From: Escherichia coli | GTDB taxonomy: Bacteria > Pseudomonadota > Gammaproteobacteria > Enterobacterales > Enterobacteriaceae | DNA length: 3,028 nt | Reading direction: 5' to 3' (one strand) | Assembly (NCBI RefSeq): GCF_003334765.1 | Contig: NZ_QOWT01000071.1 | In this document: positions 105-3,008 of the stretch, in pieces | Position numbering within the stretch: the stretch's first letter is position 1 | Layout of the letters: every line of letters begins with the position of its first letter | Made by a program: the position numbers and the translations under genes | The notes under the pieces: generated by a model | The model's input: only the letters and a program-made list of their open reading frames with translations | Database searches by the model: none | Told to the model about the DNA's origin: nothing

Positions 105-3008
<2,904 letters not shown>

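Follow-up and report, generated by a model that had tools for sequence, protein, structure and literature searches.

The hairpin at positions 1719-1738 of this copy of Escherichia coli 23S rRNA is the distal stem-loop, or tip, of helix 63 (H63), and the form that it takes here is an ordinary minority allele of the species, a third form beside the two carried by the K-12 strain MG1655. This form marks strains and alleles, that is, lineage, and not one chromosomal operon. Variation at the hairpin is very probably a matter of near-neutral drift at a dispensable surface structure, whose pairing would be kept by compensatory changes and whose variants would spread by gene conversion. Heterogeneity at this site is known, ordinary biology. 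The H63 hairpin belongs to a small number of blocks by which the 23S copies of E. coli can be told apart, both inside one strain and from strain to strain, and the variation of its tip brings no new insight into ribosome function.

The window, which here means the whole stretch of 3,028 nt that was analysed, carries the complete E. coli 23S rRNA gene (2,904 nt) on its minus strand. The Rfam model of the bacterial large subunit, RF02541, covers positions 105..3008 of this strand over its positions 1-2925; the match scores 2876.8 bits, where the gathering score is 50. Positions in the rRNA are obtained by subtracting the window position from 3009. The layout of the window is as follows:

1..11, minus strand: start of the 5S rRNA gene (11 nt, UGCCUGGCGGC), recognised from the sequence and from the annotation 'rrf: 5S ribosomal RNA' under the match
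12..104, minus strand: 23S-5S spacer, between the end of the 23S Rfam match and the 5S gene, as identical loci are annotated
105..3008, minus strand: 23S rRNA gene of the Escherichia coli type (Rfam RF02541; near-identity to annotated rrl)
3009..3028, minus strand: final 20 nt of the spacer that precedes the 23S gene, lying before model position 1

When the whole window was searched against complete E. coli genomes, all 5,426 gave a match. Among the matches listed, seven genomes, E. coli VR50 being one of them, had a 23S locus with 100% identity over the full 3,028 nt, and the usual 16S-tRNA-23S-5S operon context was seen at loci with the identical window allele. Two other readings of the stretch were discarded. 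Intervening sequences of 23S rRNA, such as those of Salmonella H25/H45, are inserted in place of a helix tip and excised by RNase III; this reading was rejected because the window gene is as long as six of the seven MG1655 copies and aligns with the copies without any insertion. A weak plus-strand match to the Pseudomonas sRNA P10, with 14 bits (E = 0.32), stayed well below the gathering score of 37 and was attributed to chance.

The hairpin pointed out in the initial annotation was placed correctly: window positions 1271..1290 correspond to rRNA 1719..1738, where the rRNA strand, the reverse complement of the window, reads GUGAAGUCCCUUGCGGAUGG within the longer rRNA-sense stretch GUAGGUGAAGUCCCUUGCGGAUGGAGCUGAAAUC. 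The name H63 follows the assignment of positions 1740-1748 to this helix in a published study (PMC2441807). The parts of the helix in the window are:

1258..1302, minus strand: helix 63 (rRNA 1707-1751), with an outer stem of 6 bp, a middle stem of 3 bp and a distal 4-bp stem-loop in the predicted folds
1286..1286, minus strand: A1723, in the internal loop beneath the distal stem, G in K-12 rrlB, rrlG and rrlE, unpaired in all predicted folds
1282..1285, minus strand: 5' strand of the distal stem, G1724 U1725 C1726 C1727 (the 'UCC' class), pairing with 1733-1736
1277..1281, minus strand: hairpin loop C1728 U1729 U1730 G1731 C1732 (CUUGC), U1730 being window position 1279
1273..1276, minus strand: 3' strand of the distal stem, G1733 G1734 A1735 U1736, with GGA in the window and in rrlB, rrlG and rrlE, and UCG in rrlH, rrlD, rrlC and rrlA

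According to the fold prediction, the distal stem consists of the pairs G1724-U1736, U1725-A1735, C1726-G1734 and C1727-G1733, closes a 5-nt loop and stands on a 3x3 internal loop and the two lower stems of H63. This three-stem architecture was predicted in all ten of the tip forms tested. The fold energy of the isolated hairpin is not unusual (z = -0.93), a value that is uninformative for a short rRNA helix, so covariation was relied on instead. Seven distinct 14-nt tip forms, from E. coli and other Enterobacteriaceae, are 100% paired in the proposed register, whereas registers slid along the sequence leave only 14-50% paired. Three of the stem pairs are altered on both sides, and the pairing or the covariation score was reached by none of 500 shuffles. 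Judged by sequence comparison, it is this comparative evidence, and not thermodynamics alone, that proves the predicted hairpin. In the Rfam LSU model, the outer stem of H63 aligns to paired consensus and the distal part found in E. coli is an insertion relative to the bacterial consensus.

Alignment of the seven rrl genes of MG1655 with the window showed that the copies are neither all alike nor equal to it. In rrlB, rrlG and rrlE the tip is GAGGUCCCUCGCGGAUGG and in rrlH, rrlD, rrlC and rrlA it is GAAGCGACUUGCUCGUGG, so that the rrn copies of one genome do differ at the hairpin, as the initial annotation had said. The division of three copies against four falls at exactly positions 1723, 1725-1727, 1730 and 1733-1735. 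At 1725-1727, the window and rrlB, rrlG and rrlE read UCC and the other four copies CGA. The alternative sequence named in the initial annotation, GCGACUUGCUCGUGG, is real and is found in rrlH, rrlD, rrlC and rrlA. The changes described as compensatory on both strands of the stem are indeed so: three inner pairs are swapped and 100% of the cells are paired. With respect to the window, the tip of rrlB, rrlG and rrlE has the UCC/GGA stem in common and differs at two unpaired bases, with G1723 in place of A and C1730 in place of U. The tip of rrlH, rrlD, rrlC and rrlA shares with the window A1723, the CUUGC loop with U1730, the length of the stem and the architecture, and differs in the inner pairs of the stem, where U-A becomes C-G, C-G becomes G-C and C-G becomes A-U. 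The combination seen in the window (A1723 with UCC/GGA and U1730) is absent from all seven MG1655 copies. Over the whole gene, the alignment gives between 4 and 22 differences from the MG1655 copies, of which rrlB and rrlG are the closest, each with 4. Strain 300709 provides a second heterogeneous genome, with one copy of the window form and one of the K-12 rrlB form.

The distribution of the forms was tabulated over the 5,426 complete E. coli genomes with 42-nt queries (rRNA 1709-1750), in which each 28-mer seed spans all the variable positions. One further form, with A1723 and C1730, had been found through near-matches from ATCC 43894 (O157:H7), IAI39 and DL21, all of which are one base apart from the window over rRNA 1680-1780, the window having U1730. 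The counts were:

Window form, GAAGUCCCUUGCGGAUGG (rRNA 1721-1738): 2,472 places in 628 genomes, 1-7 copies per genome, median 4
K-12 rrlB form, GAGGUCCCUCGCGGAUGG: 2,121 places in 750 genomes, 1-7 copies per genome, median 3
CGA/UCG form, GAAGCGACUUGCUCGUGG: 15,238 places in 2,877 genomes, median 7 copies per genome
A1723/C1730 form, GAAGUCCCUCGCGGAUGG: 17,692 places in 3,105 genomes, median 7 copies per genome

A flank-seeded 101-nt query found 37,904 places, and the summed counts of the four forms amount to about 99% of that number. As shares of the roughly 37,900 copies of 23S, the window form accounts for about 6.5%, the rrlB form for 5.6%, the CGA/UCG form for 40% and the A1723/C1730 form for 47%; by stem class, about 59% of all copies are UCC/GGA and about 40% CGA/UCG. 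The window form occurs in 11.6% of the genomes, some of which carry it in all seven copies. The genome counts of the single forms add up to 7,360 over 5,426 genomes, from which it follows by arithmetic that the proportion of genomes with two or more forms lies between about 12% and 36%. The commonest E. coli form shares with the window A1723, the UCC/GGA stem, the predicted fold and its energy, and differs only in having C1730 where the window has U1730. A single A-to-G change, at the unpaired position 1723, separates the K-12 rrlB form from the commonest form, and the rrlB form is two steps from the window. The predicted energy is -11.5 kcal/mol for all three UCC forms, with either C or U at 1730. 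The remaining combinations are rare: G1723 with U1730 was found at 12 places in 9 genomes, and the CGA/UCG stem with C1730 at only 3 places against the 15,238 with U1730. The association between stem class and loop base is thus very strong, which could reflect shared descent or selection on the combination.

Some of the G1723/U1730 tips belong to the MC4100 lineage of K-12 (MC4100, BW2952 and K1508), where rrlB has U1730 on a G1723 UCC/GGA tip and rrlB of MG1655 has C1730. The rrnB site of MC4100 lies at NZ_HG738867.1 4056305-4056346, and other copies in that genome carry U1730. The change seems to have taken place during the laboratory history of K-12, by either a point mutation or a very short conversion from a copy with U1730, and its occurrence on G1723 implies that C1730U arose more than once. 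Among 38,112 matching 23S places, 45 lay on plasmid-typed records, and some genomes had up to 23 places; these may be either rrn fragments truly borne by plasmids or artefacts of assembly. The 23S genes of E. coli E69 (CP089930.1), a species representative, are 98.6-98.7% identical to the window with 7 to 13 gap openings; these indels far exceed those between any K-12 copies and suggest an unpolished long-read assembly.

The initial annotation had proposed that the window represents a particular subset of rrn operons. This part of the proposal did not hold, for the window form lies in none of the seven MG1655 copies, occurs in 1 to 7 copies per genome and occupies differing operons across strains. 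In a sample of 8 loci for which the operon was assigned, the form as a single copy was located in rrnC (300709 and CLSC36), rrnD (G1/2) and rrnH (Z1322HEC0010), and the exact 3,028-nt allele in rrnC (VR50 and 20A24), rrnD (DLI.6n) and rrnB (PEC148). A practical consequence is that, because the same allele is found in differing operons across strains, the sequence of an rrl allele does not suffice to tell which operon it comes from. Both the varied placement and the genomes with the form in all seven copies are expected from inter-operon recombination, that is, concerted evolution. Homogenisation of 23S blocks by recombination, with rrlB, rrlE and rrlG grouped together, has been proposed for K-12 by Maeda et al. 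(PMC4696680).

Variation at the tip extends beyond E. coli. A flank-anchored scan of species-representative genomes, which is a sample and not a census, returned 26 stretches, two of them in the E. coli representative and none in Salmonella or Shigella. Six different tip sequences of 13 or 14 nt were found between identical flanks in Citrobacter, Kluyvera, Enterobacter, Leclercia and Phytobacter. The tip is AGUGAUUUACUCAU in Citrobacter and Kluyvera, AGCCCCUGCGGGU or variants of it (13 nt) in Enterobacter and Leclercia, and AGUCCCUGCGGAC in Phytobacter. The tips from outside E. coli are all paired and have the same predicted fold; the window form was in none of the tips of related genera in this sample of 26 stretches. 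On the evidence of these sequences, the H63 tip is a classic variable region or expansion-segment site, in which sequence and length vary and the flanks appear invariant. Citrobacter sp. R56 (NZ_CP069159.1) has a tip identical to the CGA/UCG form of E. coli on a 23S gene that is only 95.7% identical to the window, which suggests an old shared polymorphism, convergence or transfer. The presence of this form in Citrobacter may also mean that the two stem classes are old and maintained. E. coli forms of the tip were further seen on contigs with an enterobacterial-type 23S that are labelled as a Chlamydiaceae MAG (87% 23S identity to the window), an Oxalobacter MAG (97.5%), a Bacteroidales MAG (97.2%) and Limosilactobacillus vaginalis (96.7%). 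These four contigs with non-enterobacterial labels are most likely mis-binned or contaminating.

From the alleles, frequencies, pairing and presence in differing operons observed here, the following course of events can be proposed. The hairpin exists in E. coli in two deep stem classes, U1725-C-C/G-G-A1735 and C1725-G-A/U-C-G1735, three compensatory pair swaps apart, and two further sites, both unpaired, are polymorphic: R1723 of the internal loop and Y1730 of the hairpin loop. The window form would have arisen from the commonest form by one C-to-U transition at the unpaired position 1730. The variants are probably near-neutral for selection, and recombination between operons would move alleles, often homogenising all seven copies of a genome, as the finding of one allele in differing operons suggests. 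The hairpin would then report strain ancestry and conversion history and neither operon identity nor a special ribosome function. What has been published on H63 is consistent with a dispensable structure. A strain with a 31-nt insertion in H63 (1740-1748) grows with this rRNA as the sole source, with a doubling time of 60.3 min compared with 51.5 min (PMC2441807). [quoted passage not shown] In bacterial ribosomes, H63 packs against H58-H60 of domain III (PMC5694952), and given this contact the tip may not be wholly free of constraint.

The origin of U1730 can also be read in another way, in which the base was copied into a UCC/GGA gene from a CGA/UCG copy of the same cell by a very short conversion or mismatch-repair patch. 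U1730 is the state of essentially all CGA/UCG copies (15,238 against 3), the two classes coexist in many genomes, K-12 included, and rrlB of the MC4100 lineage gained U1730 on its G1723 UCC/GGA tip in a genome where other copies have U1730. Such an event is nevertheless unlikely. A single point mutation explains the data equally well, and C-to-U is a common spontaneous transition. Further, because positions 1727 and 1733 retain the recipient state, a patch of no more than 5 nt is required, far below the block-wise homogenisation between operons (PMC4696680).

Functional ribosome heterogeneity would give the polymorphism a quite different meaning. The tip forms would alter assembly, stability or the docking of factors near the base of the 50S subunit, selection would keep them, and cells would tune the mixture through differential expression of rrn operons. 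Two deep classes do persist, at about 59% and 40% of copies, one stem class is common to E. coli and a Citrobacter, and some 12% to 36% of genomes hold more than one form. However, genomes with one of the major forms mostly have it seven times (median 7), which makes a mixture unnecessary, and the window form is not bound to particular, differently regulated operons. Every change either is compensatory or affects an unpaired base without altering the predicted energy, and the helix concerned accepts a 31-nt insertion, can be circularly permuted and is missing from chloroplast ribosomes. Native polymorphisms between K-12 operons can alter ribosome activity in vitro (PMC11046459), but the differences in activity were traced to H91/H92; H63 and positions 1723-1735 are not mentioned in that paper, and in the alignment the window carries the consensus bases at the H91/H92 sites. 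The eukaryotic expansion segment ES27L, which arises from H63, recruits factors (PMC7102955). ES27L of 25S/28S rRNA occupies the same helix as the E. coli tip, a helix that is solvent-exposed and variable in sequence and length. ES27L is, however, a long, mobile, factor-recruiting arm, whereas the tip in E. coli is a stem-loop of 13 nt that is not known to recruit factors. On balance, a tuned mixture of ribosomes is very unlikely. Scarcely to be expected, too, is the more specific proposal that both tip classes and their linked loop bases are non-neutral and kept by selection in E. coli and Citrobacter, for example through docking on H58-H60 with an effect on the assembly or stability of the 50S subunit; if true, ribosomes with different tips would differ functionally.

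An error of sequencing or assembly in a repeated gene is effectively refuted: although some assemblies collapse or mis-polish rRNA operons, and one representative E. coli assembly has 13 gap openings over 2,655 nt of 23S, the form was seen 2,472 times in 628 independent complete genomes, many with all seven copies, and at least 7 records among the matches listed contain the full 3,028-nt window without a single difference.

Drift of a near-neutral hairpin under conserved pairing fits well with earlier descriptions of 23S variation. The earlier work that addresses 23S diversity within the species most directly is reportedly that of Anton et al. 1999. Studies of 23S micro-heterogeneity (Maeda et al. 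2015, PMC4696680; Pei et al. 2009, PMC2672173) found that the variation among copies is concentrated in variable helices, for the most part in loops or as compensatory changes, as it is here, and that subsets of operons share blocks, which was attributed to homologous recombination. Nothing essential differs in the present case; those studies were surveys of K-12 or across species, whereas the tabulation here covers 5,426 E. coli genomes. The practical impact of the polymorphism lies in read mapping, in operon-resolved analyses of rRNA or direct RNA, in probe design and in the interpretation of cryo-EM density from mixed ribosome pools.

Other sites in the gene vary among the same copies. At window position 1835 (rRNA 1174, in the loop of helix 45), the window has G and all seven MG1655 copies have U. 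G1174 is an ordinary polymorphism, present at 5,490 places in 1,371 of the 5,426 genomes, and H45 (1170-1178) is another site that tolerates insertions (PMC2441807). A second block that divides the K-12 copies lies in helix 98 (window 207..215, rRNA 2794-2802), where the window, rrlB, rrlD and rrlG have C2794, U2796, A2799 and G2802, and rrlH, rrlC, rrlA and rrlE have U, C, G and A at these positions. By inspection, these changes appear to be compensatory in pairs, and the division in H98 has been noted before (PMC11046459). The grouping of operons at helix 98 is unlike that at H63, which indicates that the K-12 copies are mosaics. At window position 1144 (rRNA 1865), C1865 is common to the window and rrlC only, the other six MG1655 copies having U.
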